A stretch of DNA of 55,213 nucleotides, from IMG/VR virus record IMGVR_UViG_3300042291_000512, positions 1-55,213 of that record, one strand, 5' to 3'. The notes beneath the pieces were generated by a model, which saw only the letters and a program-made list of their open reading frames with translations, did not search any database and was not told the origin of the DNA. The DNA comes from a virus. Lineage: Duplodnaviria; Caudoviricetes. Shown here piece by piece: positions 2 through 53,652 of this stretch. How positions within the stretch are numbered: position 1 is the stretch's first letter; every line of letters begins with the position of its first letter. The translations under genes were made by a program, and so were the position numbers.

Positions 2-106
2 ATTGGTAACCCATCTTATGATTTGGAAAGACATAAAGTAAGAAATTTAAATATAGGTAAAGATGTAATTCTTTCTGTTAGATTATTTGAATCAACAAAC
101 GAATAG
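2..106 (+). CDS. 3' end of an upstream hypothetical gene (partial)
   Basis: Open frame IGNPSYDLERHK...LFESTNE ending in TAG at 104-106, 4 nt before the next ATG. Confidence 0.6.
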   Translation: MGNPSYDLERHKVRNLNIGKDVILSVRLFESTNE

Positions 107-110
107 TAAA

Positions 111-926
111 ATGAAACTTTCAGAGTGTATTATTGTATCTAAAGAAATTAAAGATAAGTTTATCCTAGCTAAAAATAGAGATAGAGCGTATAATCCATCT
201 TTAGAAATCGTACATACTATCATTGATGGTGTGGAAGTTGCATATCTACATGATTTAATAACGGATTGGAGTGAGGGTTTAAACGAAAACGGAATTGGTG
301 TTGTAAACTCAGCACTATTAGTTGGACACGATGAAGCCGAACATAAGATTGTAAAGAAAGGTGGAAAGCCAGGTCCTGATGGTGATAAGATGAGAAATAT
401 CATTAAGCAACCTACTCTAATGGCCGCAGTAAGAGCTACACTATCATATAAGGGCAAGAGTGGGATGTCTTTAAAAGGTCATACATTTGTATCATCTCCA
501 AAACATATGGTTAGTATTGAAACTACATCAAAGCATAAGCCTGATGTTAAACTTCAAAATACCGAATCACCTGTTGTTCGTACAAATCACGGACATATGT
601 TCACTGATGCTGGATACACAAGCGGTGAGAAATATCTAAGTTCACAATTGAGAAAAATATCAGCAGAGAAATCAGTTGATAAAATAGAAGATTGGAAAGA
701 AATAGCACACGCTATGAGAAAGGAATACTTTCCAAAGAAACCAGCTCTTAATATGAAAAGAGATACGGAAGAAATGTCTACATCATCTCAAACTGTAATG
801 AACCTGACCGATAAGGTATTGCAAATAACTTACTTTAAGGGTAAAGTAAATGAATTCAAAGGTATTAATAGACAACTGCCTGAAGGATATCAACCTAAGA
901 TTACAATCGAAGTAATCTCAATTTAA
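111..926 (+). CDS. Ntn-hydrolase (C45/AAT-like cysteine amidase) with a 5-aa leader
   Basis: ATG at 111 preferred over TTG at 87. MKLSE-CIIV...LAKNRD, EGLNENG and VVRTNH are motifs typical of Cys-nucleophile Ntn hydrolases. Confidence 0.7.
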   Translation: MKLSECIIVSKEIKDKFILAKNRDRAYNPSLEIVHTIIDGVEVAYLHDLITDWSEGLNENGIGVVNSALLVGHDEAEHKIVKKGGKPGPDGDKMRNIIKQPTLMAAVRATLSYKGKSGMSLKGHTFVSSPKHMVSIETTSKHKPDVKLQNTESPVVRTNHGHMFTDAGYTSGEKYLSSQLRKISAEKSVDKIEDWKEIAHAMRKEYFPKKPALNMKRDTEEMSTSSQTVMNLTDKVLQITYFKGKVNEFKGINRQLPEGYQPKITIEVISI

Positions 927-982: not shown

Positions 983-1375
983 ATGTCAACAGAATTCGAA
1001 TTATTCAAAGGTAAATCATTAGGTGGTCTTTTTGAAGATATCTATAACAACCAAGTTTCTAAAAAAACAAAGATTAGTGCTCTAATTGAGGAATTAAAGA
1101 AAATGGTTAGACACGCAGGTGATATGGGAACTTTAGGTCCTGTAATTGGTGGTTTAATTGATAGTTCAGTTAGGAACGATGACCAATTGGTTAAGTTAGC
1201 AACAATCGCAACTAAGATTATGGCATCAGAAAAGAAAACCGAAGGACAAGAAGGATTTCTATCAGCATTTGAGAAAGAACAATTGCTTAAAGATTTGGAA
1301 GAAACTAAAGAACAAGTAGAAAGAGTTGATGATTTGGAATTTGAGTTAGATGAGTTAAAACAAAAAATAAAATAG
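983..1375 (+). CDS. helical hypothetical protein (possible small terminase-like)
   Basis: 130-aa ORF preceded by the ATATTTATA motif; function not established. Confidence 0.55.
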   Translation: MSTEFELFKGKSLGGLFEDIYNNQVSKKTKISALIEELKKMVRHAGDMGTLGPVIGGLIDSSVRNDDQLVKLATIATKIMASEKKTEGQEGFLSAFEKEQLLKDLEETKEQVERVDDLEFELDELKQKIK

Positions 1376-2622: not shown

Positions 2623-3540
2623 ATGGAAAATTTAACTGGACAAGCTACTGATTTAAAAAACCAAGCACAATCAACTGCAACAGCGGCGGTTGGTAATGCC
2701 CAAGCAACTGCAACAGCGGCGGTTGGCAATGCTCAAGCCGCAGCATCAAATGCGGTTGGCGCAGCTACATCTGCGGTGAGTGATTTGCAATCAAAAATTC
2801 CACAACTTCCAAAGATACCAAATATACCTAAACTACCTGGTGTTCCTGAATTCAAAACAAAAAAACTACCAGTTCCTAAAAAATTTAAAAATAGTAAATT
2901 CAAAGATAAATTGGCAAACGCATCGGCCAAAGCAAAACAATTGGCTGCAAAAGGACAGGCATTGGCTGCAAAAGGGCAAGCGGCTGTAGCTGGAGCACAG
3001 GCAAAAGTTCAATCAACAATTGCTTCCGCTCAAGAGAAAGCACAAAAAATAGTATCAGATGCACAAGATAAAGTAAATAAAGGAATCGCGAGTGTAGAAG
3101 AAAAAGCAACCGCAATGGCAGAAAAAGCTAAACAAAGTGTGCAAAATGAAATAAAAAATATTCAAGAAGGAAATATAAGTAAACCATTAAGTGGAGTAGA
3201 AAAAGATAAATTAATAATTAATAAAACAACTGAATTGGCGGTCACTGATGCAAAAGCTACTCAAGACGCAGCCAAAGCAGCATTGGCGAAATCAAACGAA
3301 ACAATAGGAAAACCTGATTTATCAACACCTATGAAATTTATCAAATCATATGATACTCCTAAAAATGGAAATAGATTTTATTTTTATCAACAAAGAGATA
3401 GTGTTGGGGTTTATTATACATCTGTACATGATAAAAAAGACCCATTTTCATATAAAATTCAGAATTTTGCAAAGAAAACTGCAGAAAGTGGAATAGACGT
3501 GGCTACTAGATATTGTAATGAAGTAGAAGATGATGCTTAA
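2623..3540 (+). CDS. Ala/Gln/Lys-rich repeat protein
   Basis: 11-aa repeats (TATAAVGNAQA), 7-aa repeats (LAAKGQA) and a PKIP-rich segment. Confidence 0.6.
   Translation: MENLTGQATDLKNQAQSTATAAVGNAQATATAAVGNAQAAASNAVGAATSAVSDLQSKIPQLPKIPNIPKLPGVPEFKTKKLPVPKKFKNSKFKDKLANASAKAKQLAAKGQALAAKGQAAVAGAQAKVQSTIASAQEKAQKIVSDAQDKVNKGIASVEEKATAMAEKAKQSVQNEIKNIQEGNISKPLSGVEKDKLIINKTTELAVTDAKATQDAAKAALAKSNETIGKPDLSTPMKFIKSYDTPKNGNRFYFYQQRDSVGVYYTSVHDKKDPFSYKIQNFAKKTAESGIDVATRYCNEVEDDA
2672..2737 (+). repeat. 33-bp tandem repeat, 2 copies (coding)
   Basis: caactgcaacagcggcggttgg(t/c)aatgc(c/t)caag occurs twice. Confidence 0.85.
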
Positions 3541-3558
3541 TAAACAAAATAGTTAATT

Positions 3559-4791
3559 ATGTCTTGGCAAACATTTAAAAATAATATATTAAATCTTTCT
3601 AATAGTCCCGAAAGTATTGCAGATATTGATACGGTTGCAAAAACATATGCAACTGAATATGATGCTGCTATTAAACGAGGAAAGGATTCACTTCATCAAA
3701 TATCTTTACAAAAGGGAAACGTAGATGCAATGCAACAATTATTTAAAGCTGCTTTGCAAAAAGGCCAAACATCAACTGCCCCATATGATTTGGTTGGTGA
3801 AATGGGTAAGGGTGTAATTGCGTATTGGTCTGGTGCAACTATGAATAACTTTCCAACACCGGTAATTCCCGCTCCTGGTGCGGTATCAAATGTTTCGGTT
3901 GTATCTAATATGGTAGTAAATCCTGGGCAATGGACACCTCCAACACCAGCTGCAGCCGCGGCAATATCCAACGATGATGTACAATCTCCATATGATAAAT
4001 TAGATTGGAACGAAATACCATTGGATAAAAATGATCCAGATGTTCAAGAAATAATAAATCCAGATCCAGAAAAAATAAACGAAGAAATTATACAATCGGA
4101 TTTAGTAATAGCAGGTGATGATGAAAGTGCTTCTATAATAACTGAAATGGATAATACTAAAGCAGAAATAATTGATAAAGCGTTATATGACCAAAAGGTA
4201 TTATCCGAAGAAAAATTACCACCTGCAAAAAAATTAGAAAATGACACCGCTTTAAAAAGTGGATATAAAAACTTAGATGAATTATTAAAAAAAGCCGGAG
4301 CGTGGGGCCCCAAATTGGGCAAAAATCCAAGAATTAGTTATGAAAATTTAAGAATAGGATTCAACTCGGATATACATGGACTTTGTCCACAGGGAACTCA
4401 AGCAGTAGTTGTGGCATTAACCGGTGTTAAAGGATTAGGAACTCTTAGTGGAAACGCAGATTGGTTCTCATTTAAGAATCCATCAACTGGTGGAGGGCGT
4501 TCATCGTTTGCTACTAACATCGGTGGTAAATCTTATTATAATGATAAAGTTAATGTTGGCGATGAATATACATTAGATTCTACAAAATGGCAAGTTGGTG
4601 ATATTATAGTAATGGGGTATAATGATAAAAAGTATGGCCACATACAAGTTTGGACAGGTTGGAAATGGGTTAGTGATTTTACTCAAAATAAAATACAAGC
4701 AAATTGGGTAGATAAATCATCTATTGCATTGTGGAGATTAAATGAAAACGGTAAAAGCGTAGTAACATCAGAAAAAAATAAAACGGCTTAA
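3559..4791 (+). CDS. virion-associated protein with C-terminal CHAP/NlpC-P60-like peptidoglycan amidase
   Basis: GLCPQG (Cys), GNADW, QVGDIIV and YGHIQVWTGWKWVSDF (His); acidic linker upstream. Confidence 0.7.
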   Translation: MSWQTFKNNILNLSNSPESIADIDTVAKTYATEYDAAIKRGKDSLHQISLQKGNVDAMQQLFKAALQKGQTSTAPYDLVGEMGKGVIAYWSGATMNNFPTPVIPAPGAVSNVSVVSNMVVNPGQWTPPTPAAAAAISNDDVQSPYDKLDWNEIPLDKNDPDVQEIINPDPEKINEEIIQSDLVIAGDDESASIITEMDNTKAEIIDKALYDQKVLSEEKLPPAKKLENDTALKSGYKNLDELLKKAGAWGPKLGKNPRISYENLRIGFNSDIHGLCPQGTQAVVVALTGVKGLGTLSGNADWFSFKNPSTGGGRSSFATNIGGKSYYNDKVNVGDEYTLDSTKWQVGDIIVMGYNDKKYGHIQVWTGWKWVSDFTQNKIQANWVDKSSIALWRLNENGKSVVTSEKNKTA

Positions 4792-4793
4792 AA

Positions 4794-5786
4794 ATGTCAG
4801 TAATACCTCCAACAAAAAATTCGGCAATTATAGTAGATGATTTTATATCATATGCAACATTGCATTTATCTACTGTGAGTGGTATTATAAATACCGTATC
4901 ACTATATCCGCCACTTGGAACTCCTGGTCCTGGTGTTATAATGTGGTCCTCATACATGGTAACTCCATCTAGACCTGGGGGAGCTGCATCAACTGCATCG
5001 GAAACACCTGAAGAAATAGCCGATGTTGCGGAAGTAGATACAACTGAAATAGAAATGACGGATGCTCAATTAGTGGCATCAGAAGAAGCATCTTTAGAAG
5101 GTTCAGATATAAACGAAGCATCCGCTGAAGCATATTCACTTCCAGAAGATGCACCAATACCAAGTGAGGAGGAACAGACTAGTGTTGAGGAACGAATTAC
5201 AGCGGATGCTGAAAAGGAACCTGACCCTCCATTGGCAGAAGAGGAAAAGCCTAAAGATAACATTCCTCCAGTTCCAAATTACAAAACAAAGATAAAAGTA
5301 CCAAGTGAATTAGTAGCGGCTATGAGAAAATATGGTTTAGCAAAAACACCATTAGAAAGAGCTCATTTTTTGGCACAAACTAACCATGAATCTGGTAATT
5401 TCGTATATAAAGAAGAAATTGCATCTGGAACTGCATATGAAGGTAGGAAGGATTTGGGTAATACGCAACCTGGTGATGGTAAACGATATAAAGGTAGAGG
5501 GTATATACAATTAACCGGAAGAGCTAATTATAAAAAATTCGGACCAATCGCTGGGGATGATTTTGAAGGTAATCCAACATTAGTAGGTTCTAAGTATTAT
5601 GCGGATACTGCGTGCTTATTTTGGAAAGCAAATAAATTGGGAGAAAAATGTAAAGATTCAACCACAGTTACTATAAAAGTTATAACAAAACGAATTAATG
5701 GCGGTTACAATGGATTAGATGACAGAATTAAAAAATTTACGATGTATTGGACAGAATTACAAAAAGACCCAACTCTTTGGGCCTAA
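4794..5786 (+). CDS. protein with C-terminal GH19 (chitinase-like lysozyme) domain
   Basis: HFLAQTNHES, YEGRKDLGN, YKGRGYIQLTGRANY and TKRINGGYNGLDDR. Confidence 0.9.
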   Translation: MSVIPPTKNSAIIVDDFISYATLHLSTVSGIINTVSLYPPLGTPGPGVIMWSSYMVTPSRPGGAASTASETPEEIADVAEVDTTEIEMTDAQLVASEEASLEGSDINEASAEAYSLPEDAPIPSEEEQTSVEERITADAEKEPDPPLAEEEKPKDNIPPVPNYKTKIKVPSELVAAMRKYGLAKTPLERAHFLAQTNHESGNFVYKEEIASGTAYEGRKDLGNTQPGDGKRYKGRGYIQLTGRANYKKFGPIAGDDFEGNPTLVGSKYYADTACLFWKANKLGEKCKDSTTVTIKVITKRINGGYNGLDDRIKKFTMYWTELQKDPTLWA

Positions 5787-5844: not shown

Positions 5845-6345
5845 ATGGACATGGATAAACTATTAGAAGCCATTCAAATTCTGATTAAAGAGGAGCTCAA
5901 AGAGCAATTACCTGCTTTAATTAAGGAAGGTGTGAAGGCTGAAATGAAAAAAATGCTATCTGAAACAAAGGTAGCACCAAAACCAGTATCAAAGAGTATC
6001 TCAATGGCTAAGGCTGTATTGGGAGATGATACTATTACAGAATCGGTAGTTCAAAAGGAAATACCAACAAAGCAATACAGCAAAAACCCAATGATTAACC
6101 AAATTCTTAATGAAACAAGAGGAGGTATCCCACAGGGTGATGGTGGATTTAGAACAATGAATTTTGGACAAGCAGATATGGGTTCACTTGTAGGTGGAAC
6201 TGCATTAGCTGAAAAAATGGGTTATGGTGAAATGGCTAAAGGACCTTCTCCAACAGGATTGGGAGTAAACACTGGAGTAGCTGAAATAGATAAAGCATTG
6301 AATAGAGATTATTCAGAACTTGTAAAAAGATTTAAGAAGAAGTAA
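5845..6345 (+). CDS. hypothetical protein
   Basis: 166-aa ORF with upstream ATATTTATA motif; its stop overlaps the next start (TAATG). Confidence 0.7.
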   Translation: MDMDKLLEAIQILIKEELKEQLPALIKEGVKAEMKKMLSETKVAPKPVSKSISMAKAVLGDDTITESVVQKEIPTKQYSKNPMINQILNETRGGIPQGDGGFRTMNFGQADMGSLVGGTALAEKMGYGEMAKGPSPTGLGVNTGVAEIDKALNRDYSELVKRFKKK

Positions 6346-6773
6346 TGGCAATTGTATTAGGACAAAAATTAGTACAAGATACTAAAAAGTATGAAGATTA
6401 TGCGATAGGTATATCATTACCAATCCAAATCGGTAATACTGCGTTCAATCAAACCTTTACAACAAATGAGCAAATTAAATCAAATGTAAAAAATCTATTA
6501 TTAACTAAAAAAGGAGAAAGAGTAATGCAGCCTGAATTTGGTAGTGGGTTGCAGGAATTACTTTTTGATTTTAATGATGATACATTATCTGGTAAAATTG
6601 AAGATGCGATAACAGCAGCTTTAGAGCAATGGTTACCATATGTTACAGTAGAACAAATAGATGTAGAAAGTACAAGCAACAATAGAGATAATAATTTAGT
6701 AAATGTTTCCGTAACATTCGGATTGTTAAATCAAGTTGATTTAAACACGGTATCTTTTACAATAGCCGCTTAA
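6345..6773 (+). CDS. g25: baseplate wedge / sheath initiator (gp25/GpW family)
   Basis: QIKSNVKNLLLTKKGERVMQPEFGSGL...EQWLPYV. Confidence 0.9.
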   Translation: MAIVLGQKLVQDTKKYEDYAIGISLPIQIGNTAFNQTFTTNEQIKSNVKNLLLTKKGERVMQPEFGSGLQELLFDFNDDTLSGKIEDAITAALEQWLPYVTVEQIDVESTSNNRDNNLVNVSVTFGLLNQVDLNTVSFTIAA

Positions 6774-6783
6774 TAAAATAAAA

Positions 6784-8820
6784 ATGGGAATAACTGTAAC
6801 AAATAAGAATTTTAAAAATAAAGGAAAAGAAGTAAAATATCTTGATAAGGATTTTATTGGATTTAGAAGTAATTTAGTAGAATTTGCAAAAAACTATTTT
6901 CCTAAAACATATTCTGATTTCAATGAATCATCTCCGGGTATGATGTTTATAGAAATGGCATCGTATATAGGTGATTCATTATCGTATTACATCGATGATA
7001 CTTTAAAAGAATCATTGATGGTATATGCAGAAGACATAAAAAGTGTATTGGCATTATCTCAATATTTGGGATATAGACCAAAAGTAACTTCCCCAGCAAT
7101 AACAACCTTATCAGTTTATCAATTAGTACCATCGATAGGTATTGGCTTAAATAACATACCAGATTCAAAATATTTTTTAAGAATAAAAGAAGGATTACAA
7201 TCCATTTCAACAAAAGATGGTATATCATTTAGAACAACGGACGCTATTGATTTTTCGGAAGCAGCTAATAGAGAGATTAGTGTATATCAGAGAGAAGCGA
7301 TAACTGGTGAACCAAGCTTTTATTTAATTAAAAAATATGTTCAAGTCATATCTGGTGAATTAAAAGAAGCAACTTTTACATTTGGTTCATATTCTCCTTT
7401 TGAAAAAATAACATTAAATGATACTGATGTTATACAAATATTAGATGTTAGAGATTCAAATAATAATAAATGGTATGAAGTTCCTTATTTAGCTCAAGAA
7501 ATGGTTTTTGTAGATGTACCAAATACGGAAGTAAATGACCAAGACTTGTATCAATTTAAAACAACTGTACCATATATTTTAAAAACAATTAAAACACCAA
7601 AAAGATTTGTTTCAAAAATAGATGAAGAAAGTAGAACTATAATACAATTTGGTGCGGGGGATTCATCGGCATCGGATGAGCAATTAATTCCAAATCTTAA
7701 GAATGTTGGATTGGGTTTACCAAATTCCATAAGTAGATTAGAAGAATCGTTTGACCCAACAAATTTCTTAAAAACAAAAACATATGGCACATCTCCATCA
7801 AATACAACTATAACTGTTAAGTATTTAGTTGGTGGTGGTGTTAAATCAAATGTGTCAACTGGACAATTAACTAGAATTGATAAGATAGAATTCGAAGAAG
7901 ATACACAGGCATTAAGTGATGGTGATAGAGCAATATATAGTGCAACTAAAAATTCGGTTGCAATTGATAATGAAGTTACTGCAGGTGGTGGTAGAGGTGG
8001 CGAGACCGTTGAAGAAATTAGACAAAATGCATTAGCAAATTTTGGTTCTCAAAATAGAGCAGTAACTGCCAAAGATTATCAAGTAAGAGTATTATCTATG
8101 CCAGCAAAATTTGGAGCGGTTGCAAAGGCGTATGCTGTAGCAGATGGTACGATAGATAATAATTCACCAGCATCTATTTTAGCATCTCCTAATAATTTAC
8201 AAGAGTTTACCGATTTGGTAATGGGATTTGTTAATATGCCAGATAGTCAGGAACCTTCTGAACAATCGGTTAAAGAAGATATTACAAGATATTTGCTTGG
8301 AAAAACTTCAAATGAGAACGAAAAAAATAATCCATTTGCAATTAATTTATATTTGTTAGGATATGATTTATTTGGAAAATTAATTCCACTTACACGTGGT
8401 ATAAAAGAAAATGTTAAGACTTATTTAAATGAATATAGATTATTAACCGATGGTATAAACATTAATGATGGATTTATTATAAACATAGGTATTGAATTTG
8501 AAATATCAGTTTATCAGAATTATAATAAGAGTGAGGTATTGGCAAAATGTATTTCAGAATTAAAAGATTATTTTAATATTGATAATTGGCAATTCAATCA
8601 AACAATAAATTTAAGTGAAGTTGAATTATTAATAGCAAATATAGAAGGAGTTTCATCTGTTCCAAGTTTATTAATAGTGAATAAATGTGGAGGTAAGTAC
8701 GCACCAAATTCATATAATATAGAAGCGGCAACTAAAGCTAAGATTGTATATCCATCTTTAGACCCATCTATTTTTGAAATTAAATATCCGGATTCGGACA
8801 TAAAAGGCAGAGCAAAATAA
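6784..8820 (+). CDS. g6: baseplate wedge subunit (T4 gp6 / baseplate J-like)
   Basis: DFNESSPGMMFIE, IQFGAG, YLVGGG, GGRGGETVEEIR and QNRAVTAKDY; follows gp25. Confidence 0.88.
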   Translation: MGITVTNKNFKNKGKEVKYLDKDFIGFRSNLVEFAKNYFPKTYSDFNESSPGMMFIEMASYIGDSLSYYIDDTLKESLMVYAEDIKSVLALSQYLGYRPKVTSPAITTLSVYQLVPSIGIGLNNIPDSKYFLRIKEGLQSISTKDGISFRTTDAIDFSEAANREISVYQREAITGEPSFYLIKKYVQVISGELKEATFTFGSYSPFEKITLNDTDVIQILDVRDSNNNKWYEVPYLAQEMVFVDVPNTEVNDQDLYQFKTTVPYILKTIKTPKRFVSKIDEESRTIIQFGAGDSSASDEQLIPNLKNVGLGLPNSISRLEESFDPTNFLKTKTYGTSPSNTTITVKYLVGGGVKSNVSTGQLTRIDKIEFEEDTQALSDGDRAIYSATKNSVAIDNEVTAGGGRGGETVEEIRQNALANFGSQNRAVTAKDYQVRVLSMPAKFGAVAKAYAVADGTIDNNSPASILASPNNLQEFTDLVMGFVNMPDSQEPSEQSVKEDITRYLLGKTSNENEKNNPFAINLYLLGYDLFGKLIPLTRGIKENVKTYLNEYRLLTDGININDGFIINIGIEFEISVYQNYNKSEVLAKCISELKDYFNIDNWQFNQTINLSEVELLIANIEGVSSVPSLLIVNKCGGKYAPNSYNIEAATKAKIVYPSLDPSIFEIKYPDSDIKGRAK

Positions 8821-12230: not shown

Positions 12231-15200
12231 ATGAGAGCAGTAGAAGAAAACGCATTTGATAATGGATTTGGGGTAAACGAATCACAACAATTATACAATC
12301 TTGATAATGAATTGGGTATTGGTATAGGTGGGGGTTCAGGTGCTGGCATCTCCTATGGTGGCGGCGGAGGAGGAGGCTTTATACCTATCATAGATACTCC
12401 AAATACGGCTCAAAGTGATAGTAAAAATATATTTTATATAGAGGCAAATGCCGCGGCAAGTATTTATATAAATGGTAGACCTACATACCAAACAACAAAT
12501 TATGGGTTACCTATTATGGTATCGCAATTGTTGGACGAAGGTAGTAAAAAAATTACGGTACAAAAGGAAGGATACGCGTGTAACGAAGAATATATAATAG
12601 ATGTTGTACAAAATCCAAATTACTATATACCATATGTTAATTTAAATATAAATCCATATGATAGTTTGGTTGGATACGATACAAGAGGATTACCCAATCA
12701 AACGTATGAAGATAACAGTTTATATAGAATTCCTGAAAATTATCAAGCGGTTTACTCGTCTGTACCGGCATACACATTTAGAATAAGAAAATTTATAAAT
12801 GAGGTACTTCAAACTGATTATAGTTATGAAATTGATAAGCAAGATAAAAAAATAAATTTTACATTAACTCAAAATATCATTGCTGATAGAAATCCAACTG
12901 ACCCTTTAGTTGAAAAGATAAAATTAAACATGGCTGTTGAGGGCCCAAATTCATCCGTATTAGTGGTGAAGGATGGTACTGGTATAACTAATGAAAAATT
13001 TAATTTAAATGCAGGAGTAACAAATTTTGAAGATGTACCAACATCGGATTTAGTTTATTCGATACAAACATCTGATATAAATTTATACAGGATTACTAAA
13101 ATAGTAGTAAGTGGTGAGGGGTTGGTAACAAAAACGTTAGAAGCTACTAGTGGATTGGAAAGTATATCTACTAAAATAAAAGCCGAAAGGGATTTAAATA
13201 TTAGTATTACTACTGAAAATTTCACAATAGTACAAGCAACAATACCATCCGTAGCATTTCTTAATTTAGACAGATTAGCATCAAAAGAATTTACTGAGTA
13301 TAACATAAATTCAAACGCAGATGTTCCAATTGGATTAAATTTATTTGGAGGTACTAATAGAGTATCGGTGTATGTAAAGGATAAGAAATATGCATTTGAT
13401 GTAAGTGGTGATAGTTCTATAATTTTAATACCATCTAAAACGTTTGATGTAATTGGTAAATATTCTATAAAAATAGTACCAAGTAATAATAGTGGAGATG
13501 GTGAGTTTATAGAAACGGCATTAGTTGCAATGGATGATATGTGGGTTGGTGTTCCGGATATTAGAAATATACAATACCCATCGGTTCTAAGAGGTCCTGA
13601 TTACATTGGTACGGATGTAAATTTTAATATATACTTTGATTCGGTTGATACTGATTATGTTAGAATGTATGCCGGAAGTACAAATTCAAATTTTACACAA
13701 TTACCTAGTAATGGCACACATACATTTAATTTTAAGCAATTATTAGTAAATTCAGGTACCAACGTTTCAGAGGACCAGGATAAAATTAGTTTACAATTAA
13801 TATTAATACCATACAATACAAGTGGAAGACAAGTCGTAGTTGGTAAAACTGAAATAATTACAATTCTTTTTGATAAAGGAGATTTAACAATTCCAAGAGA
13901 TGTTGCAATTGGTAGAATTGCTGAAGGATTTATTGCACAATTTGACAAATCTATTTTTGCAGATGAAACTTCTAAATACTTAACTCACTTATTACATATT
14001 GGTGATGGTGATAATAAAGTAATTACAACTTGGATTGGTGATGATGAATCGCTTATATTAAAATTATATGAACCGTTAGATACTGCAATACAACCAAACC
14101 AACAAGTTTGGATATCAAAAGTTCAATCAGACCCAATAATTGAAACGGTAACAATAAGTGGAGTTGATACAAGTTATTGTGCCCCACTAAAAGGACCTAA
14201 CTTTTTATTAGAACCTGATAACGGTACTGCTTTTAAAATATTTGATGATTTAATTGCAAGCGGTTCTACTACTTCAAATGATATATTAAATAAAATATCC
14301 GCTCAAAATAATATTGATACTGAAAAATTAAATATTCAATATGCAAGTGGGTCTTCATATACATTTGACCAATTTGTGCATTTTGGTTCAGCGGCTGAAA
14401 GATTAAAAAACTTTTATTATAAAGTAAGTGTTTTACAAGAATATCAAGCAAAGTATTTAGATTTAACACAAACATCCTACCCAATTGGTTATTTATTAAC
14501 CGAAGATTCGGGTGGAGATGGTACTCCTGAAATACTTGGTAATGAAATATTAATAGGTGAACAACTGGACCCAATTTTACAATTACAATTTGAGACACCT
14601 CAAGTAATCCCAGCACCATATGCTTTAATAGAAGCTAATTTAGTAGCTCAAAAAATAAGTAATTTGATAAAAACGTTTGATGGTTATGAAATATTTTTAT
14701 TTAAATCTGAAAACTTATTAGCATATCCAAAAGAAAATTATTTTAATCCATTAACATCTTACACATACAGAGTTCTAAGACCAAAAAATCATCCGATATC
14801 AATAAGTTGGTATGAAACCGCATTAAACGATTCGGAAGAATTTGATAAATATAATTCATATGCAATGCGTAATAATCTTCCAGAATATATAACGGAAGAT
14901 TATGATAATGCTGATTTTATTTTATTTTTAGATATGGTAGGCCAACATTTTGATATTTTGTGGGTCTATATAAATGGGATAAAAAAAGCTAAAAAAGTAG
15001 AACATAAAGAAGAATTAGGAGTACCGGATTCGTTAGTTAGTTCTTTACTAAACGCAATGGGTTGGGAAGAAAAAAGAGCATTTAATTCTCAATTACTTTG
15101 GGAATATATGTTTGGTACTAATCAAAATGGAGCTCCAAAATACGGCCGAAGTTTGGAAGATGCTAATTATGAAGTTTGGCGAAGAATTTTAAATAACTTA

Positions 15201-17453
15201 CCATATCTATTAAAACATAAGGGTACTTCTAGAGCATTGAAAGCTGTAATGGCTTGTTATGGCGTACCACAATCTATGTTGACGATAATGGAATTTGGCG
15301 GACCGCAAGATCCAGTTAAAAATGGCACTACAAAATTTACGTTTGATGATAGAACCGCGGCTATTGTATTAGATGAAAATTCAAGTATACAAGTACCTTG
15401 GCATATTGTAGGCTCAACAATGGATTTCCCAAATTGTATCGAATTTAGAATAAGGCCCTCAGCTAGTATCTCTAATCCAGCGACATTAATATCTGGAAGT
15501 GAATTTACTTTAGATTTAGTTCAAACAACCGGTTCTTATTATAAATTAGAATTAAATTTTGGTGGTAATGATTCTAATAGTACATACTTTGAAACAACAA
15601 CTGTATATGTAACTCCTGAATTAAGTGGTGAGTATGCATATGGTCCTGATTTAAAAACTGGAAGTTTAGATTTTCCACTTTCAAATGAACATTATTCCAA
15701 CGTAGCGATTAATAGGCACAACAATCCAGATTCATCTTCTTGGTATGAGATTTGGTTGGGAACATCTGATGGGCAAAGAATAATTACTTCGGTTAGTATG
15801 TCTATGTTATATAACGATAGTCAATGGACCGGTTCAACTCCATACTTAGTAGTTGGTGGAAATGGGTATCAGGGTGAATTAGATGAATTTCGTTTGTGGA
15901 GTGTTCCATTACAAAGAAGTAAATTTGAAAATCATACACTATTCCCAGACGCAATCAATGGTAATGATTACGATTCATCTACAAAAGATTTAATGTTCCG
16001 TTTAGATTTTGAATATCCAAAAGATAGAACTAAAACGGAAAATATTGGAATTAAAAACGTAGCTATAAGTGATACATATGCAGAACCATTTGCATCGGCA
16101 AGTAATATGTATTCTGCATCGGCATACCCATATCAATATATACCATATGATAGAACTGTAACCGCTACCGTGCCATCTATGGGATTAAACTATTCAAACA
16201 AAATACGTTTTGAAGACCAGGAATTAATTGGAGACCTTTCATATAAAACTAGAGCAACAAAAAAGGCGTTTGATAGAGCTCCAATAGATTCAAATCGTTT
16301 AGGATTATTCTTCTCTCCAATAAAGGAGTTAAATATGGATATCCTAAAAGCATTTGGTGATTTTAATATTGATAACTATATTGGTGACCCTTCCGATGAA
16401 TATACCAATTCATATAAACAATTAGATACTTTAAGACATTATTATTTTGAAAGACTTGGTAATAGAGATATCTATGAATATATTAGATTAATACGCTATA
16501 TAGATAAATCATTATTCGAGGTACTTTCGGATTTAGCACCTGCTAGAACAAATATATCTAAAGGATTATTAATAGAACCGCATTATTTAGAAAGAAGTAA
16601 AACACAATGGAAAAAAGCGGAAGCATTACGAAATGATTTTGATACTTCAATAGATACGAATGAAAATTACATATTAGAAGGCGAATCAATTCCGAAAGAT
16701 GCACATATAAACGCAGAAGAAGTAGCAATGCTAACTGGTGACATTAGTAATGAAGAAACTACAATTTTCGCAAATGATGTAATAGTAATTGAGGGAACTA
16801 ATCCAAATTACGATACAACTATTAATACAGCAGATTCAATTATATTCGAATCATCTGCTCCTTTTTATGATACTTTAATAGAATGTCCTACCGGAGCTAA
16901 TTTGGTAGGAGAAGCCGATTCATTTACATTTACTGAAATTGGAAATGATAAAGATTCTATTGCAAATGCGGGATATGGATTATACGCTATAAGAGGTAAT
17001 GGTTTGGTTAGAGATTATGACCCATTATTTGGAAATAATCAAAATACTGGAAGCAGAAAGAGTATATTTTTGGTAAAACAACAATATATCCAAAAAATAA
17101 ATACACAAACCGAAGGATACCCAACCACAGCGGATAAGCAAGTTAAATATGAAAAAATAGCTGTTACTAAATATAAATATAAAGTAGCAAAACTTCCTTT
17201 TAGTGGTAGTATTGAACTTGGTAACGATACCGTAGAGGTAACCGCTTTAAATGGATATTTGCCATCACATTATAAATTTACAAATAATTTGGGTGAGGGA
17301 ATGCTTCGTTCATTTTGGAAAGGCTCGGTTCAAGATTCATCAACTACACCTGATGGGTTAGACCCGGTTGAAACATTTACAACCAACCCTAATATTCTTA
17401 GAGTTACTAAGACTGGACGAGGTAGTGGTGAACCAATTCTTATCGTTGATTAA
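12231..17453 (+). CDS. large baseplate wedge protein (gp7-like) with LamG/ConA-like domain
   Basis: 1740 aa. FLDMVGQHFD and LLKHKGTSRALK wedge motifs; IEFRIRP...YQGELDEFRLW LamG-like motif; PEGA-like N-terminus. Confidence 0.65.
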   Translation: MRAVEENAFDNGFGVNESQQLYNLDNELGIGIGGGSGAGISYGGGGGGGFIPIIDTPNTAQSDSKNIFYIEANAAASIYINGRPTYQTTNYGLPIMVSQLLDEGSKKITVQKEGYACNEEYIIDVVQNPNYYIPYVNLNINPYDSLVGYDTRGLPNQTYEDNSLYRIPENYQAVYSSVPAYTFRIRKFINEVLQTDYSYEIDKQDKKINFTLTQNIIADRNPTDPLVEKIKLNMAVEGPNSSVLVVKDGTGITNEKFNLNAGVTNFEDVPTSDLVYSIQTSDINLYRITKIVVSGEGLVTKTLEATSGLESISTKIKAERDLNISITTENFTIVQATIPSVAFLNLDRLASKEFTEYNINSNADVPIGLNLFGGTNRVSVYVKDKKYAFDVSGDSSIILIPSKTFDVIGKYSIKIVPSNNSGDGEFIETALVAMDDMWVGVPDIRNIQYPSVLRGPDYIGTDVNFNIYFDSVDTDYVRMYAGSTNSNFTQLPSNGTHTFNFKQLLVNSGTNVSEDQDKISLQLILIPYNTSGRQVVVGKTEIITILFDKGDLTIPRDVAIGRIAEGFIAQFDKSIFADETSKYLTHLLHIGDGDNKVITTWIGDDESLILKLYEPLDTAIQPNQQVWISKVQSDPIIETVTISGVDTSYCAPLKGPNFLLEPDNGTAFKIFDDLIASGSTTSNDILNKISAQNNIDTEKLNIQYASGSSYTFDQFVHFGSAAERLKNFYYKVSVLQEYQAKYLDLTQTSYPIGYLLTEDSGGDGTPEILGNEILIGEQLDPILQLQFETPQVIPAPYALIEANLVAQKISNLIKTFDGYEIFLFKSENLLAYPKENYFNPLTSYTYRVLRPKNHPISISWYETALNDSEEFDKYNSYAMRNNLPEYITEDYDNADFILFLDMVGQHFDILWVYINGIKKAKKVEHKEELGVPDSLVSSLLNAMGWEEKRAFNSQLLWEYMFGTNQNGAPKYGRSLEDANYEVWRRILNNLPYLLKHKGTSRALKAVMACYGVPQSMLTIMEFGGPQDPVKNGTTKFTFDDRTAAIVLDENSSIQVPWHIVGSTMDFPNCIEFRIRPSASISNPATLISGSEFTLDLVQTTGSYYKLELNFGGNDSNSTYFETTTVYVTPELSGEYAYGPDLKTGSLDFPLSNEHYSNVAINRHNNPDSSSWYEIWLGTSDGQRIITSVSMSMLYNDSQWTGSTPYLVVGGNGYQGELDEFRLWSVPLQRSKFENHTLFPDAINGNDYDSSTKDLMFRLDFEYPKDRTKTENIGIKNVAISDTYAEPFASASNMYSASAYPYQYIPYDRTVTATVPSMGLNYSNKIRFEDQELIGDLSYKTRATKKAFDRAPIDSNRLGLFFSPIKELNMDILKAFGDFNIDNYIGDPSDEYTNSYKQLDTLRHYYFERLGNRDIYEYIRLIRYIDKSLFEVLSDLAPARTNISKGLLIEPHYLERSKTQWKKAEALRNDFDTSIDTNENYILEGESIPKDAHINAEEVAMLTGDISNEETTIFANDVIVIEGTNPNYDTTINTADSIIFESSAPFYDTLIECPTGANLVGEADSFTFTEIGNDKDSIANAGYGLYAIRGNGLVRDYDPLFGNNQNTGSRKSIFLVKQQYIQKINTQTEGYPTTADKQVKYEKIAVTKYKYKVAKLPFSGSIELGNDTVEVTALNGYLPSHYKFTNNLGEGMLRSFWKGSVQDSSTTPDGLDPVETFTTNPNILRVTKTGRGSGEPILIVD

Positions 17454-17506: not shown

Positions 17507-18133
17507 ATGGCATATTTAGATAACACGGAAATTACGGTAGATGCAATTCTTACCAAAAAAGGAAGACAAAAATTGGCATCTGGACAATCTTTAAACATTA
17601 CAAAGTTCGCTTTGGGAGATGATGAGATTGATTATACGCTTTACGAACCAGCACACCCAAAAGGTTCAGCATACTACGATTCAGCAATTAGAGCTATTCC
17701 TATTACGGAAGCTTCTCCTGATGAAACTCAAGTATTAAGATATAAGTTAGTTACTTTACCAAAAGGAACTACTCAAATCCCAACTGTAAGATTGGGTGTA
17801 CCTTCTATTAGTGTTAATCAATATGAAGGTGGTGTAGGATTATCTCCAACAACATCTCCTGCTGGAAACCAAAATGCTGGATACACTATGGTATTAGCCG
17901 ACCAAAGAGCTGGTACTCTTACTGTAACTAGAGGAGCAAACGGAACTGGTACCGCGTTGTTCTTAGGTGATGAAATTACAACAACGGCACAGGTTACTAC
18001 TGGTTTAGAATTTAAGTTCACTCCAAATCCAAATTTAACAATTGATGTATCAACAACGATAACTGTATTTGGCAATGAAACGGGAGGTTCTCAAACTATA
18101 CCTGTAATTGTAACGTACAAAGCAAACGTATAA
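17507..18133 (+). CDS. baseplate/tail-fibre attachment structural protein
   Basis: AILTKKGRQKLA...ITKFALGD resembles the N-terminus of tail-collar/fibre proteins. Confidence 0.6.
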   Translation: MAYLDNTEITVDAILTKKGRQKLASGQSLNITKFALGDDEIDYTLYEPAHPKGSAYYDSAIRAIPITEASPDETQVLRYKLVTLPKGTTQIPTVRLGVPSISVNQYEGGVGLSPTTSPAGNQNAGYTMVLADQRAGTLTVTRGANGTGTALFLGDEITTTAQVTTGLEFKFTPNPNLTIDVSTTITVFGNETGGSQTIPVIVTYKANV

Positions 18134-45595: not shown

Positions 45596-46474
45596 ATGAA
45601 AAAAATAAAACATTCCAAAGTTAAGAACACTGGAGTGTTATTTGAATTATTAGTAAGACAAATAACATTAGAAGTTCTTAATGGGGACAAAACGGAGAAC
45701 GCAAAACATATAGTAAAGGAATTCTTTGCAGCTGGGACTGAATTAAATAAAGAATTACGCCTTTACGATTTGTTATTAAAAGAAAAATACAATTCGGAAT
45801 CAAAAGCCGAAATGTTTGTTGATACTGTATCACAGGCTCATAGTAAATTAAATGAGACTAAACTTGTAAAAGAGAAGTATAATCTTATTAAACAAATTAA
45901 TGAAAAGTTTGAATTAGAGCAATTTCTATCTTCTCCTATAACTAACTATAAAGTATTAGCTTCAATATATAAAGTATTTGAATCTAAGAAGTCCGAAAAC
46001 TACGATATTAAGGATATATTCAATTCAAAGATTACATTGATTGAAAATATCATCTCAAGACCAACCGTAGTTAAAGCTAACAAAACGGATGATACTAAAT
46101 TGATTGAAACCTACAAAAAACAAGATAAAGACCTACGATTATTAACCTATAAGATTCTTGTTGAGACTTTCAATAAAAAATACACAAATTTAGATGAAAA
46201 ACAAAAGGGATTGTTAAAAGAATATATTAATAACATGTCTAATACATCTAAATTTAAAGATTATTTAGCGGTAGAACTTCCACAGATTGTGAAAGAACTA
46301 AAATCCATCAAGTCTAAAATATCAGATAAAGTAACTACAATTAAATTGGCAGAAACTATTTCTGTTTTAGAAAAAATGAAAATTGGTAAAACTGTAACTG
46401 ATAATAATGTTTCATCTATCATGCTTTCTTATGAGTTAATCAAAGAATTAAAATCAAAGGTAAATGTCAAATAG
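45596..46474 (+). CDS. helical head-region protein
   Basis: 292 aa between portal and protease, with upstream ATATTTATA motif. Confidence 0.65.
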   Translation: MKKIKHSKVKNTGVLFELLVRQITLEVLNGDKTENAKHIVKEFFAAGTELNKELRLYDLLLKEKYNSESKAEMFVDTVSQAHSKLNETKLVKEKYNLIKQINEKFELEQFLSSPITNYKVLASIYKVFESKKSENYDIKDIFNSKITLIENIISRPTVVKANKTDDTKLIETYKKQDKDLRLLTYKILVETFNKKYTNLDEKQKGLLKEYINNMSNTSKFKDYLAVELPQIVKELKSIKSKISDKVTTIKLAETISVLEKMKIGKTVTDNNVSSIMLSYELIKELKSKVNVK

Positions 46475-47051
46475 ACTAAAAGAAATAATCAGAGGTATAG
46501 TTAAAGAAATCCAAGACGAAAAGGAATTGGAAGAAATGACTGGAACTGGTGCAGTTGCTGGATACGATACTCCAAACGCATTCGCTAAACCTGGTCAAAC
46601 TGGAAAGAAAAATAAAAGATTGGCAAATATAACTGGTGGTGAAGTTGTAGATGATTTAGAAGAAGCTAAGGATTGGTTGAAAAACGATGTTCCTGCTAAC
46701 TCTAAAAACGCATTAACAATAAAACCAACTGCAACTGATTGTAGTGATTCTGGTGAAATTGCAGATAAAAGTGGTATGATATTAGCATCGGCTGATGATG
46801 AAGCTAGTTTAAATGAAAATCGTTGGTTAGAAATTAAAAACGGAGATTCTTCACCTAAAGCTAAAATGAGTAAAGGTATGACGAGTATCAAACATCAATT
46901 GGGTGAAGTAGAAAAGTTTGTTAATTGGTACTCTAAGATTAAAAACGAAAATGGAGTTAAGAGGGATGATTACTATAAAAGAACACATAAAAGTTTACAT
47001 AAAATAAAAGAGAGATTAATGAATCTTTCAGAAAAAATTAGAACACTATAA
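46464..47051 (+). CDS. putative internal head/core protein
   Basis: N-terminal RLKEIIRGIVKE; modules bounded by LEE/LNE. Confidence 0.6.
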   Translation: MSNRLKEIIRGIVKEIQDEKELEEMTGTGAVAGYDTPNAFAKPGQTGKKNKRLANITGGEVVDDLEEAKDWLKNDVPANSKNALTIKPTATDCSDSGEIADKSGMILASADDEASLNENRWLEIKNGDSSPKAKMSKGMTSIKHQLGEVEKFVNWYSKIKNENGVKRDDYYKRTHKSLHKIKERLMNLSEKIRTL

Positions 47052-47052: not shown

Positions 47053-47553
47053 ATGAACACATCAATTACAAAATCAAGACTAAAAGAATTAGTTAAAGAA
47101 GTAATGACAGAAGAATCTGAATATCAGGCATTCTTTCAAAAAGCTTTAGATAAAGCAGGTAAAGATATTAATGCAATGTCAGACGAAGAAAAGAAATCTT
47201 TCTTTAATAAAATTGATTCTGCTTGGAATGGTAAGGGTGAGAAGAATGAAGAATTGGTTGGTGGTCAAAAAGAATTAGATGTTGATAAGGATGGTGATAT
47301 TGAAGGAGATGATTTAGCAGATTTAAGAGCAAGTAAAACCGAAGATATATCAGCTGAATTACCATCTGCAACTATCCCATCTGCTGTAAAAATAAAATTA
47401 GGGATGGCCATTGATAAAATTAAAGATGCTAAATTAAATAATAATGCAAAATTACAATTAGTTGCGCAAGTTATTGATAGTTTGGGTATAGATAAATCTC
47501 AATTAGGTACTATTGCTAATAAGATTAGAAGCAAAATGGAATCTAAAAAATAA
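47053..47553 (+). CDS. putative prohead core protein with DxDxDG loop
   Basis: ITKSRLKELVKEVMTE, YQAFFQKAL and LDVDKDGDIEGDDL; immediately upstream of the protease. Confidence 0.6.
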   Translation: MNTSITKSRLKELVKEVMTEESEYQAFFQKALDKAGKDINAMSDEEKKSFFNKIDSAWNGKGEKNEELVGGQKELDVDKDGDIEGDDLADLRASKTEDISAELPSATIPSAVKIKLGMAIDKIKDAKLNNNAKLQLVAQVIDSLGIDKSQLGTIANKIRSKMESKK

Positions 47554-47562: not shown

Positions 47563-48159
47563 ATGAAGAATCTTTTAATAGAAACAAAATTATTCGAAGG
47601 TAAAGTACAAGAAGACGAAGGTGGAAGAACCATTGTTAAAGGTATTCTACAAAGAGCTGGTGCTGAAAATCAAAATGGAAGAATCTATCCTAGAGAAATC
47701 CTAATGAGAGAAGCTAAGAAGTATGAGGTATTCATCAAAGAGCGTAGAGCATTGGGTGAATTAGACCATCCGGATTCTACTGTAATTAACTTAAAGAATG
47801 TTTCTCACAATATTAGAGAGATTCATTGGGAAGGTGATGATTTATGTGGAACTGTTGAAGTACTTTCTACTCCATCTGGTAACATCTTAAAAGAATTATT
47901 AAAAGCAGGTATCCTATTGGGTATTTCATCTAGAGGAATGGGTTCTACTCGTAACTTATCTGGAAACAAAGTAGAGGTACAAGAAGATTTTGAATTGATT
48001 GGTTGGGATTTCGTATCTAACCCATCTACACACGGTGCATTTATGGTACCTGTAAACGAATCGGTTAATAGAGGTTTACAACAAATCGGAACTGATGTTT
48101 GCGGAGAATTCTGTAAAGCACAAGACTTAATGAGAGAAATAATAACTGAAATAGCATAA
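47563..48159 (+). CDS. g21: prohead protease (T4 gp21-like)
   Basis: NQNGRIYP, ALGELDHP, VSH, TPSG, GISSRGMGS and DFVSNPS. Confidence 0.96.
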   Translation: MKNLLIETKLFEGKVQEDEGGRTIVKGILQRAGAENQNGRIYPREILMREAKKYEVFIKERRALGELDHPDSTVINLKNVSHNIREIHWEGDDLCGTVEVLSTPSGNILKELLKAGILLGISSRGMGSTRNLSGNKVEVQEDFELIGWDFVSNPSTHGAFMVPVNESVNRGLQQIGTDVCGEFCKAQDLMREIITEIA

Positions 48160-52017: not shown

Positions 52018-53652
52018 ATGGCAAATTTTGATTTAAGCAAACTTATGGAAGGCAAGAACCCACAAGCAGTAATGTTGGCTGAAACACGTCAATTGAAAAG
52101 CAAATGGGAGAAAACAGGTCTTCTAGAAGGTATGAAAGAAAGAGACCAACACTCTATGGCAGTTCTATTAGAGAACCAAGCTAAGCAATTGTTGGATGAG
52201 GCAACTCAAACAGGTACATCATCAGGATCAGAAGAATGGTCTGGTGTTGCTTTACCATTAGTAAGAAGAATCTTCGGAGAAATCGCATCTAAGGAATTCG
52301 TAAGTGTACAACCTATGAACTTACCTTCAGGTCTTATCTTCTTCTTAGACTTCAAATATGGTTCTGCACAAGGTGGAGCAGGACAGTTTGGTGGTAAATC
52401 ACTTTTCGGTGGTACTAACGTAACTGGTTCAGCATCTAACTTTGGTAGAACTAATGCAGCTGAAGGTGGTTTATATGGTGAAGGCCGTTATGGTTATTCA
52501 GTAAATGATGCATCTATTGCAGCTTCAACAACTGCACAAGCTTCAGCTTCTTGGGTAGATTTAGGATTCGATTCTAACTATTCTCAATCAGTAGCTAACG
52601 TTGTAACAACTGGACGTTCAATCGTTAAGTTGACTATTCCTAAAGCTAACATTTCAGCAACTGCTGATACTGAAGCTGTACGTTCATTCCAAGTGGCTGG
52701 TGTACACTCTACTTTAGGTCAATTCAACTATGTATCTGGTACTAACGTTGTATTATTCGTATCTGCATCTTTAACTCAAAGAGCTGCATTAGCAGACGCA
52801 GGAGCAGCAACTGTAACTTATTCTGAAGTTCCTGTAGCTTATGACAGAGGTGATTTCGAAGATTCAACTGCAAATAGTGCTGGTAACACCACTACTGCTT
52901 TAGATATTCCTGAAATCGATCTTGAATTGAAATCAGAGGCTATCGTTGCTAAAACTCGTAAGTTGAAAGCAGTATGGACTCCTGAATTAGCGCAAGATTT
53001 GAACGCGTATCACTCAATTGATGCAGAAGCTGAATTAACTTCTATGTTATCTGATTATATCTCTTTAGAGATTGATTTAGAAATCTTAGATATGTTAAAG
53101 AGCAACGCATTAACTACTGAATACTGGTCAACTAACGTTGGTGAGGAATATGTAGGTGGTACTTGGTCAAACATTGGTGGTGCTTCTAACGCATACACTA
53201 AGAATGCATGGTTTCAAACATTAGGTGTTAAATTGAACAAAGTTTCTAACAAGATTCATCAATTAACATTAAGAGGTGGTGCTAACTTTATCGTTGCATC
53301 TCCAGATGTTTGTACTATTTTAGAATCAATTCCTGGTTTCGTTGTAAACGCTGATAAAGACGCTTTACAATTCGCAGCTGGTGTAACTTCAGTAGGTTCT
53401 ATGAGCAATAGATACACAGTTTACAAAAACCCTTACATGACTTCTAACGAAATCTTGATGGGTTATAGAGGTAACAACTTCTTAGAGACTGGTGCTGTTT
53501 ACGCTCCTTATGTTCCATTGATTATGACTCCATTAGTGTATGACCCTCAAAATTTCACTCCAAGACGCGGGGTGATGACGAGATACGCTAAGAAAATGGT
53601 CCGCCCTGAGTACTACGGAAAGATTTATGTTAAAGATTTAGCATCTATCTAA
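52018..53652 (+). CDS. g23: major capsid protein (T4 gp23-like)
   Basis: LLENQ, VSVQPMNLPSG, AKTRKLKAVWTPELAQDLNAYH, YAPYVPL and PRRGVMTRY. Confidence 0.97.
   Translation: MANFDLSKLMEGKNPQAVMLAETRQLKSKWEKTGLLEGMKERDQHSMAVLLENQAKQLLDEATQTGTSSGSEEWSGVALPLVRRIFGEIASKEFVSVQPMNLPSGLIFFLDFKYGSAQGGAGQFGGKSLFGGTNVTGSASNFGRTNAAEGGLYGEGRYGYSVNDASIAASTTAQASASWVDLGFDSNYSQSVANVVTTGRSIVKLTIPKANISATADTEAVRSFQVAGVHSTLGQFNYVSGTNVVLFVSASLTQRAALADAGAATVTYSEVPVAYDRGDFEDSTANSAGNTTTALDIPEIDLELKSEAIVAKTRKLKAVWTPELAQDLNAYHSIDAEAELTSMLSDYISLEIDLEILDMLKSNALTTEYWSTNVGEEYVGGTWSNIGGASNAYTKNAWFQTLGVKLNKVSNKIHQLTLRGGANFIVASPDVCTILESIPGFVVNADKDALQFAAGVTSVGSMSNRYTVYKNPYMTSNEILMGYRGNNFLETGAVYAPYVPLIMTPLVYDPQNFTPRRGVMTRYAKKMVRPEYYGKIYVKDLASI

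Follow-up and report, generated by a model that had tools for sequence, protein, structure and literature searches.

A predicted viral Cys-Ntn hydrolase with a gp21-type cleavage motif directly before its nucleophile in a T4-like jumbo phage

The first complete gene in a 55,213-nucleotide stretch of viral DNA (IMG/VR record IMGVR_UViG_3300042291_000512; "the window" below means this whole stretch) encodes a protein that resembles N-terminal nucleophile (Ntn) hydrolases and has a predicted catalytic cysteine at residue 6. The 55-kb window is a piece of a viral record, about 30% complete, from a T4-like jumbo phage, and it carries a T4-like structural module (baseplate wedge, terminase, portal, gp21-type protease, and gp23-type capsid protein; Table 1). 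The Ntn open reading frame (ORF 111-926) opens with atg aaa ctt tca gag tgt, or M-K-L-S-E-C, and this translation confirms the placement of Cys6 (codon 126-128) directly after L-S-E from which the original prediction had started. An alternative TTG start at 87 was rejected, as it overlaps the upstream ORF and is supported by no homologue. The original prediction went on to propose that the leader targets an inactive enzyme to the phage head and that the prohead protease there exposes the cysteine. Our comparisons support a Cys-Ntn hydrolase and support the prohead protease interpretation in part.

An AlphaFold2 (AF2) model of the ORF product, made with 44 homologues, has a predicted local distance difference test score (pLDDT) of 77.3 and a predicted template modelling score (pTM) of 0.81, and it shows the four-layer alpha-beta-beta-alpha fold of the Ntn-hydrolase superfamily. 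Foldseek returned 78 matches in the Protein Data Bank (PDB) at E ≤0.001, and all shown entries with a described function are Ntn hydrolases; the best matches were IAT (C45, rank 1), BSH/PVA (C59), NAAA, and C69. VIA aligned 195 residues of the model with the NAAA beta chain 6dy1_B (Z 17.9, root-mean-square deviation (rmsd) 3.1), and most of its alignments open with model residue 6 opposite the residue that heads the mature chain (NAAA residues 126/128/131, acid ceramidase 143, IAT 103, PVA 1, and BSH 2). In the model, Cys6 thus stands where a core strand begins, in the place of a nucleophile that heads the mature chain. Thirteen positions are invariant in 75 diverse members of the family, including C6, K21, R23, D24, N58, N159, and R181, and N22 and R25 are at least 90% conserved, at a mean column identity of 21%. 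The K21-N22-R23-D24-R25 block may correspond to the Arg/Asp of a CBAH-type active site. Fold, alignment of Cys6 with the first residues of mature chains, and invariance of C6 bear out the predicted Ntn hydrolase with Cys6 as its nucleophile.

Sequence searches with the window protein gave only noise in Pfam (E up to 1), no match in PHROGs, no match in NCBIfam (E up to 0.1), and nothing relevant among PDB sequences, against which a profile of alignment A1 had 0 matches as well. The protein does not reach the Peptidase C45/AAT models (PF03417, and NF040521 at its curated cut-off), and in place of the long N-terminal chain and small P1 residue of C45 enzymes it has a 5-residue leader and a P1 Glu. 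Among its relatives, 33 of the 75 diverse members match Pfam AAT (C45) at E ≤0.1, P0147 (30.9 bits) and P0187 (25.0 bits) exceed the 23.2-bit AAT cut-off, and relatives match the NCBIfam model "C45 family autoproteolytic acyltransferase/hydrolase" below its cut-off. The C-I-I...N-R-D block bears what we take to be a resemblance to TANGO2/NRDE (PF05742), a model that the window protein does not match and that five of the 75 members match weakly (best E 0.0027). Since the protein falls below the C45 cut-off, we file it as a distant relative of C45/AAT and not as a member; since it falls below those of both C45 and TANGO2, we regard it as representing a new viral branch within the Ntn superfamily.

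The family as a whole comprises 1116 homologues, none of them named, in 512 clusters at 50% identity. Its Atlas clusters are labelled 100% viruses, a scan of 185,579 species genomes with alignment A2 found two contigs of metagenome-assembled genomes only, and among 50,697 deposited phages homologues occur only in MA9V-1 and MA9V-2. The family is essentially viral. Because the best structural matches (NAAA and acid ceramidase) cleave fatty-acyl or similar non-peptide amides, our guess from the model is that the substrate would be an amide in a lipid or small molecule, for example a fatty-acyl amide.

We compared the residues that precede the cysteine in the close set of 121 sequences, which consists of the query and 120 homologues among the matches listed. 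A leader ending in [LIVM]-x-E-C is present in 97 of these, 23 start with Met-Cys, and one is truncated at the N-terminus; the motif is thus found in 97/97 leader-bearing close sequences, with L at P3 in 59, I in 31, V in 5, and M in 2. Their leaders include MKLKE, MKLLE, MKRILTE, MAKILQE, MINE, and MNE, and the homologue MA9V1_182 from the cultured Chryseobacterium phage MA9V-1 (43% identity) has a 12-residue leader that ends L-N-E before the cysteine. IMG/VR loci yielded 184 distinct variants (165 x-E-C, 11 (A/G/S)-C, 5 M-C, and 3 odd or at a locus edge), and P3 is hydrophobic in all 165 x-E-C variants (L 86, I 58, V 17, M 3, F 1). P3 and P1 are fixed, while P2 and leader length vary; called leaders span 3-25 residues, and the longest (up to 25 residues) are probably miscalled starts. 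Judged from these alignments, [LIVM]-x-E before the cysteine is not a matter of chance.

The L3-S4-E5 motif directly before the predicted new N-terminus is of the gp21 type. According to PMC9026906, gp21 cuts after L/I-X-E, T4 Alt loses a 7-residue propeptide, and the first 10 residues of IPIII serve as the T4 capsid targeting sequence. As the original prediction presumed, the same window encodes a gp21-type (Peptidase_S77) protease at 47563-48159, which matches PF03420 (92.6 bits, E 6.3e-28), the head maturation protease family phrog_207 (6.5e-50), and the T4 protease structure 5jbl (E 6.1e-15). Its start, MKNLLIE, is similar to MKRILTE and MAKILQE, Ntn leaders of 7 residues in close homologues, and its L-I-E recalls one that PMC9026906 places close to the N-terminus of T4 gp21. 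Another property of gp21 substrates, a shared N-terminal targeting peptide of about 10 residues, is absent from MKLSE and present in two related phages, G021 and G029.

Across records, PF03420 is found in 20 of the 30 with x-E-C Ntn proteins, including 7 of the 8 that are at least 90% complete, and in 0 of the 5 with (A/G/S)-C proteins, which are 23-79% complete by CheckV, none ≥90%. The same five records, at 23-79% completeness, gave no Gp23 or Phage_capsid match, and four records of this class that were tested for S78 gave none; the window, used as a positive control for the Gp23 search, matched. The alignment of homologues that the original prediction called for finds (L/I/V/M)-x-E before the cysteine in every leader-bearing relative from S77 phages. 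By comparison, the E5-C6 bond is thus supported as a candidate protease site.

These observations are compatible with the following scheme. The product of ORF 111-926 would be made as an inactive precursor, because MKLSE blocks the alpha-amino group of Cys6. The phage's gp21-type protease, whose family cuts after L/I-x-E within the assembling head, would cut E5-C6, and the enzyme would gain activity at head maturation and ride in the capsid into the next host as T4 Alt does. We infer cleavage by the protease, packaging, and delivery of the Ntn enzyme, which may be switched on only inside the maturing capsid; to cleavage of E5-C6 in trans by the prohead protease, which implies packaging, we give an even chance. 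The chief rival, which we regard as a real possibility though a somewhat doubtful one, is that the folded precursor removes its own leader through attack of Cys6 on the E5-C6 bond. P3 and P1 would then serve that reaction, for example with Glu as a general base, and the enzyme would be active in the infected cell, packaged or not.

The evidence that best separates these two readings is the presence of shared leaders on unrelated proteins. We counted leaders in ORFs from a crude caller of our own (first ATG per open frame, greedy overlap removal), using patterns that were defined after leaders had been seen. In G021, a 290-kb, 97% complete genome from a deep lineage of the x-E-C class (below, the E class), the Ntn protein starts with MKNLIRSILNEELHREVIHE followed by the cysteine, and its leader contains L-I-R-S-I-L-N-E. 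The core [LIVMF][LIVM][KR]x[LIVM][LIVM]xE lies in the first 25 residues of 12 of its 324 ORFs, against 0.4 expected from internal frequency (21 ORFs against 4.7 when one mismatch is allowed), and [KR]x[LIVM][LIVM]xE lies in the first 14 residues of 25 of the 324, against 1.7 expected. The mature parts of the 12 exact-core proteins have no mutual blastp similarity and their codons differ, which places the conservation of the leader at the peptide level. Pfam gave 0 matches for 10 leader-bearing ORFs of this genome. Proteins of G021 with an L-I-R-x-I-L-x-E-type start include those at 3444-4790, 196930-197487, 205019-205519, 205567-206562, 207854-208279, and 283872-284333. Going by these sequences, the shared leader of G021 may mark a large set of head-packaged proteins.

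A similar picture emerges in G029, where the Ntn protein starts with MIKLRHLLHDLSE followed by the cysteine and the pattern is present in 6 of 135 ORFs (0.5 expected), with leader starts that include MIKLKDILKE, MKLKDILKE, and MIKLAEILNE. The protein that starts MIKLAEILNE has an F-D-F-D-D-T-L block of HAD-like appearance. Two non-Ntn ORFs of G029 start with MKLKDLLPLQPINE before N and MKLRDLIPQHINE before S, and these leaders are of the type found on the Ntn proteins of L344/L345, MKLKDLIPKPINE before the cysteine. G009, a genome with window-like gene order around the Ntn gene, has the pattern in 7 of 354 ORFs (1.8 expected, P 0.002). In the window, the exact core is present in two ORFs between portal and protease (0.1 expected). 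Self-cleavage leaves unexplained why the same I-N-E- or L-x-E-ending leaders stand on non-Ntn proteins of the same genomes. In sequence terms, MKLSE looks like a shortened remnant of a longer propeptide that is common to unrelated proteins in the genomes of relatives, and to our eye the short leaders of its close homologues are likewise abbreviated forms of the long ones.

We surveyed the residues before the cysteine more widely in the 150 best cluster representatives of the 512 clusters. The E class accounts for 48 of them, with L/I/V/M at P3 in 47, and the (A/G/S)-C class for 75, all with K or R at P3; 17 are Met-Cys forms (all ≤332 aa), two have other residues before the cysteine (P1 one Q, one V), and in eight no N-terminus was found (truncated or missed by the search pattern). 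The Met-Cys forms have an in-frame stop 1-11 codons upstream and no start codon between, which rules out a miscalled start. In forms that have lost the leader, the cysteine follows Met immediately, as residue 2. A tree of 261 domains (omitting nine without Cys by the pattern, the MA9V-1 sequence, and one with <200 residues after Cys) places the A/G/S class in one clade (78 leaves, support 0.98) nested among x-E-C lineages. There are 13 class changes of all kinds, mostly from E to Met-Cys, and Met-Cys forms are scattered through the E class.

Proteins of the A/G/S clade are mostly giant multidomain proteins (median 797 aa, maximum 2792; representatives P0133-P0272, with L164 655-2148 as an example), and their Ntn domain is often internal. 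Its partners are topoisomerase IB, RNA ligase, poly(A) polymerase head, HAD_SAK_1, 2H phosphoesterase, LigT-like, SOD, GNAT, and GGACT domains. An R-V-A-S-R-Y-type motif occurs at N-termini, C-termini, and domain junctions of these proteins (42 in 75 proteins vs 1.0 in shuffled ones). A lipoprotein signal was rejected for the (A/G/S)-C class, whose leaders are too short and have K/R at P3.

A number of observations weigh against cleavage by the prohead protease. Characterised Cys-Ntn enzymes (C45, C59, NAAA, and acid ceramidase) are activated by cleaving themselves or by loss of Met, and we know of no case in which an Ntn hydrolase is activated in trans. The abstract of PMC9140057 describes auto-activation as an Ntn hallmark. 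In the model the first core strand begins right at the scissile bond, an awkward position for an outside protease. The Ntn gene is placed with the baseplate genes, heading that block, away from the head genes. Leaderless Met-Cys forms arose many times within the E class, and PF03420 is present in two of four Met-Cys records and in both complete ones. Repeated leaderless forms, S77 phages included, mean that neither masking nor the leader is essential. The sister A/G/S clade carries (K/R)-x-(A/G/S) before the cysteine in place of the Glu motif, and, since the split between E and A/G/S is a single event in the tree (support 0.98), the link with S77 lacks independent replicates. The P values for leader enrichment are optimistic because the patterns were post hoc and the ORF calling crude; G031 shows no enrichment (1 of 127 ORFs vs 1.0 expected), and the leader pattern in the window (1 of 43 ORFs vs 0.2 expected, P 0.22) is not significant. 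No virion proteome of a homologue was found, and the consulted parts of the MA9V-1 and MA9V-2 papers give sodium dodecyl sulfate-polyacrylamide gel electrophoresis at most.

The longer leader core is absent from MKLSE and from all 98 close sequences (0/98), and it is exact in just 1 of the 48 E-class representatives. Because MKLSE and its close relatives lack this core, the proposal that the leader targets the enzyme to the head finds no support for this five-residue leader; Met-Cys forms at 84-85% identity to the window protein have no leader at all. The original prediction also named homologues without Glu at position -1 as a finding that would count against it, and here the outcome is divided: Glu is retained in every S77 phage whose protein has a leader, and it is absent from the Met-Cys forms and from the A/G/S sister clade. 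The AF2 model gives residues 1-3 of the leader a pLDDT <50 and starts a strand at residue 5. For a homologue whose leader has 14 residues, the model gives residues 1-10 a pLDDT <50 and includes a short helix there; this partly helical leader is predicted to lie outside the core strands, which weakly suggests an exposed, accessible propeptide.

Some of the same evidence lends weight to self-cleavage. Relatives match the models of self-cleaving AAT/C45 enzymes (33 of 75 members, two above the cut-off, and the NCBIfam C45 model below it), the scissile bond abuts a core strand in the model, and Met-Cys and short-leader forms coexist in the family as they do in C59. An acidic P1 has precedents among self-cleaving Ntn enzymes in glycosylasparaginase and Bacillus subtilis PurF. 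The sister clade, in which no S77 was found, nevertheless has a strict motif before the cysteine and internal Ntn domains that need release. Besides the shared leaders, self-cleavage leaves unexplained the opposite P3/P1 chemistry of the two clades: the P3-P1 motif differs between the E and A/G/S clades, though the 13 invariant core residues are common to both. It also does not account for the exact agreement of P3-P1 with the published gp21 motif in phages that encode the protease.

The readings other than cleavage in trans and self-cleavage are, even taken together, unlikely. In one, which we consider quite improbable, the protease trims long leaders at an upstream L-x-E, or a different protease, of host or phage origin, is at work, and the cysteine is exposed in some other way, short leaders being capsid-independent relics. 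The presence of at least two [LIVM]-x-E sites in the leaders of 17 of the 48 E-class representatives and the graded leader length (about 20 residues, then 3, then none) fit this reading, against which the Cys-adjacent site is as conserved as any upstream site. It is very improbable that the protein is inactive, with a binding or structural role (for example in the baseplate), a retained fold, and no need of a free cysteine: its gene heads the baseplate block and it matches no Pfam family, but C6, K21, R23, D24, N58, N159, and R181 are invariant across the 75 diverse members despite their low overall identity, and leader loss always sets the cysteine at residue 2, as an N-terminal nucleophile requires.

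Table 1. Features of the window, with positions counted from its first letter.
Feature	Position	Strand	Evidence or remark
3' end of upstream ORF (5'-truncated)	2..106	+	TAG 104-106, 4 nt before Ntn ATG
Ntn ORF, 271 aa, first complete gene of the window	111..926	+	ATG 111, TAA 924-926
Leader M-K-L-S-E, L-S-E at P3-P1	111..125	+	Translation; conservation in leader-bearing relatives
Cys6 codon TGT, predicted N-terminal nucleophile	126..128	+	Structural alignment; invariance in alignments A1 and A5
Block K21-N22-R23-D24-R25 after strand 1	171..185	+	Conservation in 75 diverse members
130-aa ORF after the Ntn gene, leads to hub-like ORF and baseplate genes	983..1375	+	Gene order in relatives
ORF with weak endolysin-like C-terminus	3559-4791		phrog_38472
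ORF with GH19/chitinase-like endolysin domain	4794-5786		phrog_181, 3.2e-40
Baseplate wedge genes	6345-8820		PHROG matches
Very large ORFs, 1740 and 2719 aa, tail/baseplate region	12231-17453 and 25551-33710		
Glycosyltransferase/methyltransferase-like ORF, 725 aa	34496-36673		Between tail-fibre genes and terminase gene
1017-aa ORF, cytidylyltransferase-like N-terminus	38295-41348		Between tail-fibre genes and terminase gene
Large terminase	42085-43680		PHROG matches
Portal	43745-45526		PHROG matches
Head-module ORF, 195 aa, core I-I-R-G-I-V-K-E, between portal and protease	46464..47051	+	No PHROG match
Head-module ORF, 166 aa, core L-V-K-E-V-M-T-E	47053..47553	+	No PHROG match
gp21-type prohead protease (Peptidase_S77), N-terminus M-K-N-L-L-I-E	47563..48159	+	
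DNA methyltransferase-like ORF, 440 aa	49358-50680		phrog_12517 4.9e-78; phrog_498
374-aa ORF, highly acidic, Glu/Ala-rich, just before capsid gene	50869-51993		No PHROG match
gp23-type major capsid protein, candidate maturation site L-D-E61-A62	52018..53652	+	PF07068 E 1e-75

The gene order at the start of the window, with the Ntn gene followed by an ORF of about 130 aa and a hub-like ORF, is also found in G009, G011, and G012. The T4-type late promoter TATAAATA has five + strand copies in the window; two lie no more than 60 nt ahead of the start of an ORF, and the Ntn gene is preceded by none, a pattern that carries no information on when genes are expressed. In G012 (L251, about 17920-18060), a terminator-like hairpin and then a small ORF encoding a peptide of about 46 residues, very basic in composition, lie within the 320-nt spacer that precedes a leaderless Ntn gene. 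In MA9V-1, the Ntn homologue is followed, a few genes further downstream, by a gene of 7122 nt (MA9V1_187).

The two endolysin-like ORFs of the window are adjacent, directly downstream of the hub-like gene; both bear cell-wall hydrolase ends and are probably tail-associated lysins. The methyltransferase-like ORF lies within the head module, with the scaffold-region ORFs on one side and the capsid gene on the other. The acidic 374-aa ORF, with L-K-E and L-E-E sites close to its N-terminus, probably encodes the scaffold. Searched against T4 gp23 chains, the capsid protein matches at E 2e-32, and its residue 66 aligns with residue 17 of mature gp23*; L-D-E61-A62, a few residues before the aligned stretch, is thus a putative maturation site.

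If cleavage by the prohead protease is correct, a member of a superfamily of textbook self-activating enzymes would be switched on by another protease in the maturing capsid, which would represent a new control principle for Ntn hydrolases, and the phage would carry a dormant enzyme into its next host. The comparative data further suggest that proteins of uncultured T4-like jumbo phages draw on a common vocabulary of N-terminal leaders which, if real, would make the set of packaged and ejected proteins predictable from sequence. A broader picture, which we offer tentatively and rate a little short of even, is that these phages tag many unrelated proteins (perhaps about 8% of ORFs in one genome) with a portable propeptide ending in L-x-E for loading into the prohead, that one such cargo is an Ntn hydrolase whose catalytic cysteine would be created by the maturation cut, and that a sister virus group builds the same domain into polyvalent proteins. 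If self-cleavage is correct instead, the finding reduces to a large branch of C45-like amidases, purely viral and unnamed (the 1116 proteins in 512 clusters described above) with two alternative strict motifs before the cysteine.

A comparison with known Ntn hydrolases highlights the points at which the window protein departs from them. It shares with C45/AAT (IAT, 2x1c/2x1d) the fold (Foldseek rank 1, VIA Z 15.4) and a cysteine at the aligned chain start (IAT residue 103), but its leader has 5 residues where the alpha chain of IAT has about 100, and the P1 residue of IAT is Gly where that of the window protein is Glu. NAAA and acid ceramidase provide the best structural matches (Z 17.9-16.8, rmsd 3.1-3.4, 195-197 aligned residues), though at 12-13% identity and with no sequence-level match; these enzymes activate themselves in lysosomes and possess a saposin-like alpha chain. 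The C59 enzymes BSH and PVA have the same fold (Z 14-16), and Met-Cys starts and short propeptides both occur in that family, whereas the window protein is shorter (271 aa vs about 320-330) and matches no Pfam model.

The sister clade recalls the polyvalent proteins of phages and conjugative elements (Iyer et al., 2017; PMC5512222) in embedding the Ntn domain in giant proteins, whereas the window protein is single-domain. A term search of PMC5512222 gave no "NTN" or "N-terminal nucleophile", and our literature search found no paper linking polyvalent proteins of bacteriophages with NTN and none linking an Ntn hydrolase with a prohead protease.

A parallel to the proposed activation comes from T4 itself. 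Like Alt (7-residue propeptide, according to PMC9026906) and the T4 internal proteins, the window protein has a short propeptide ending in L/I-x-E in a phage with a gp21-type protease, and, like the T4 targeting sequence, the leaders of related phages are common to many unrelated proteins. Unlike Alt and the internal proteins, its own leader lacks the shared core, and its packaging is putative. Although it fits the T4 propeptide paradigm, activation by a capsid protease would be a novelty among Ntn hydrolases. To our knowledge the cut in T4 releases or matures proteins and does not create a catalytic residue, as it would here.

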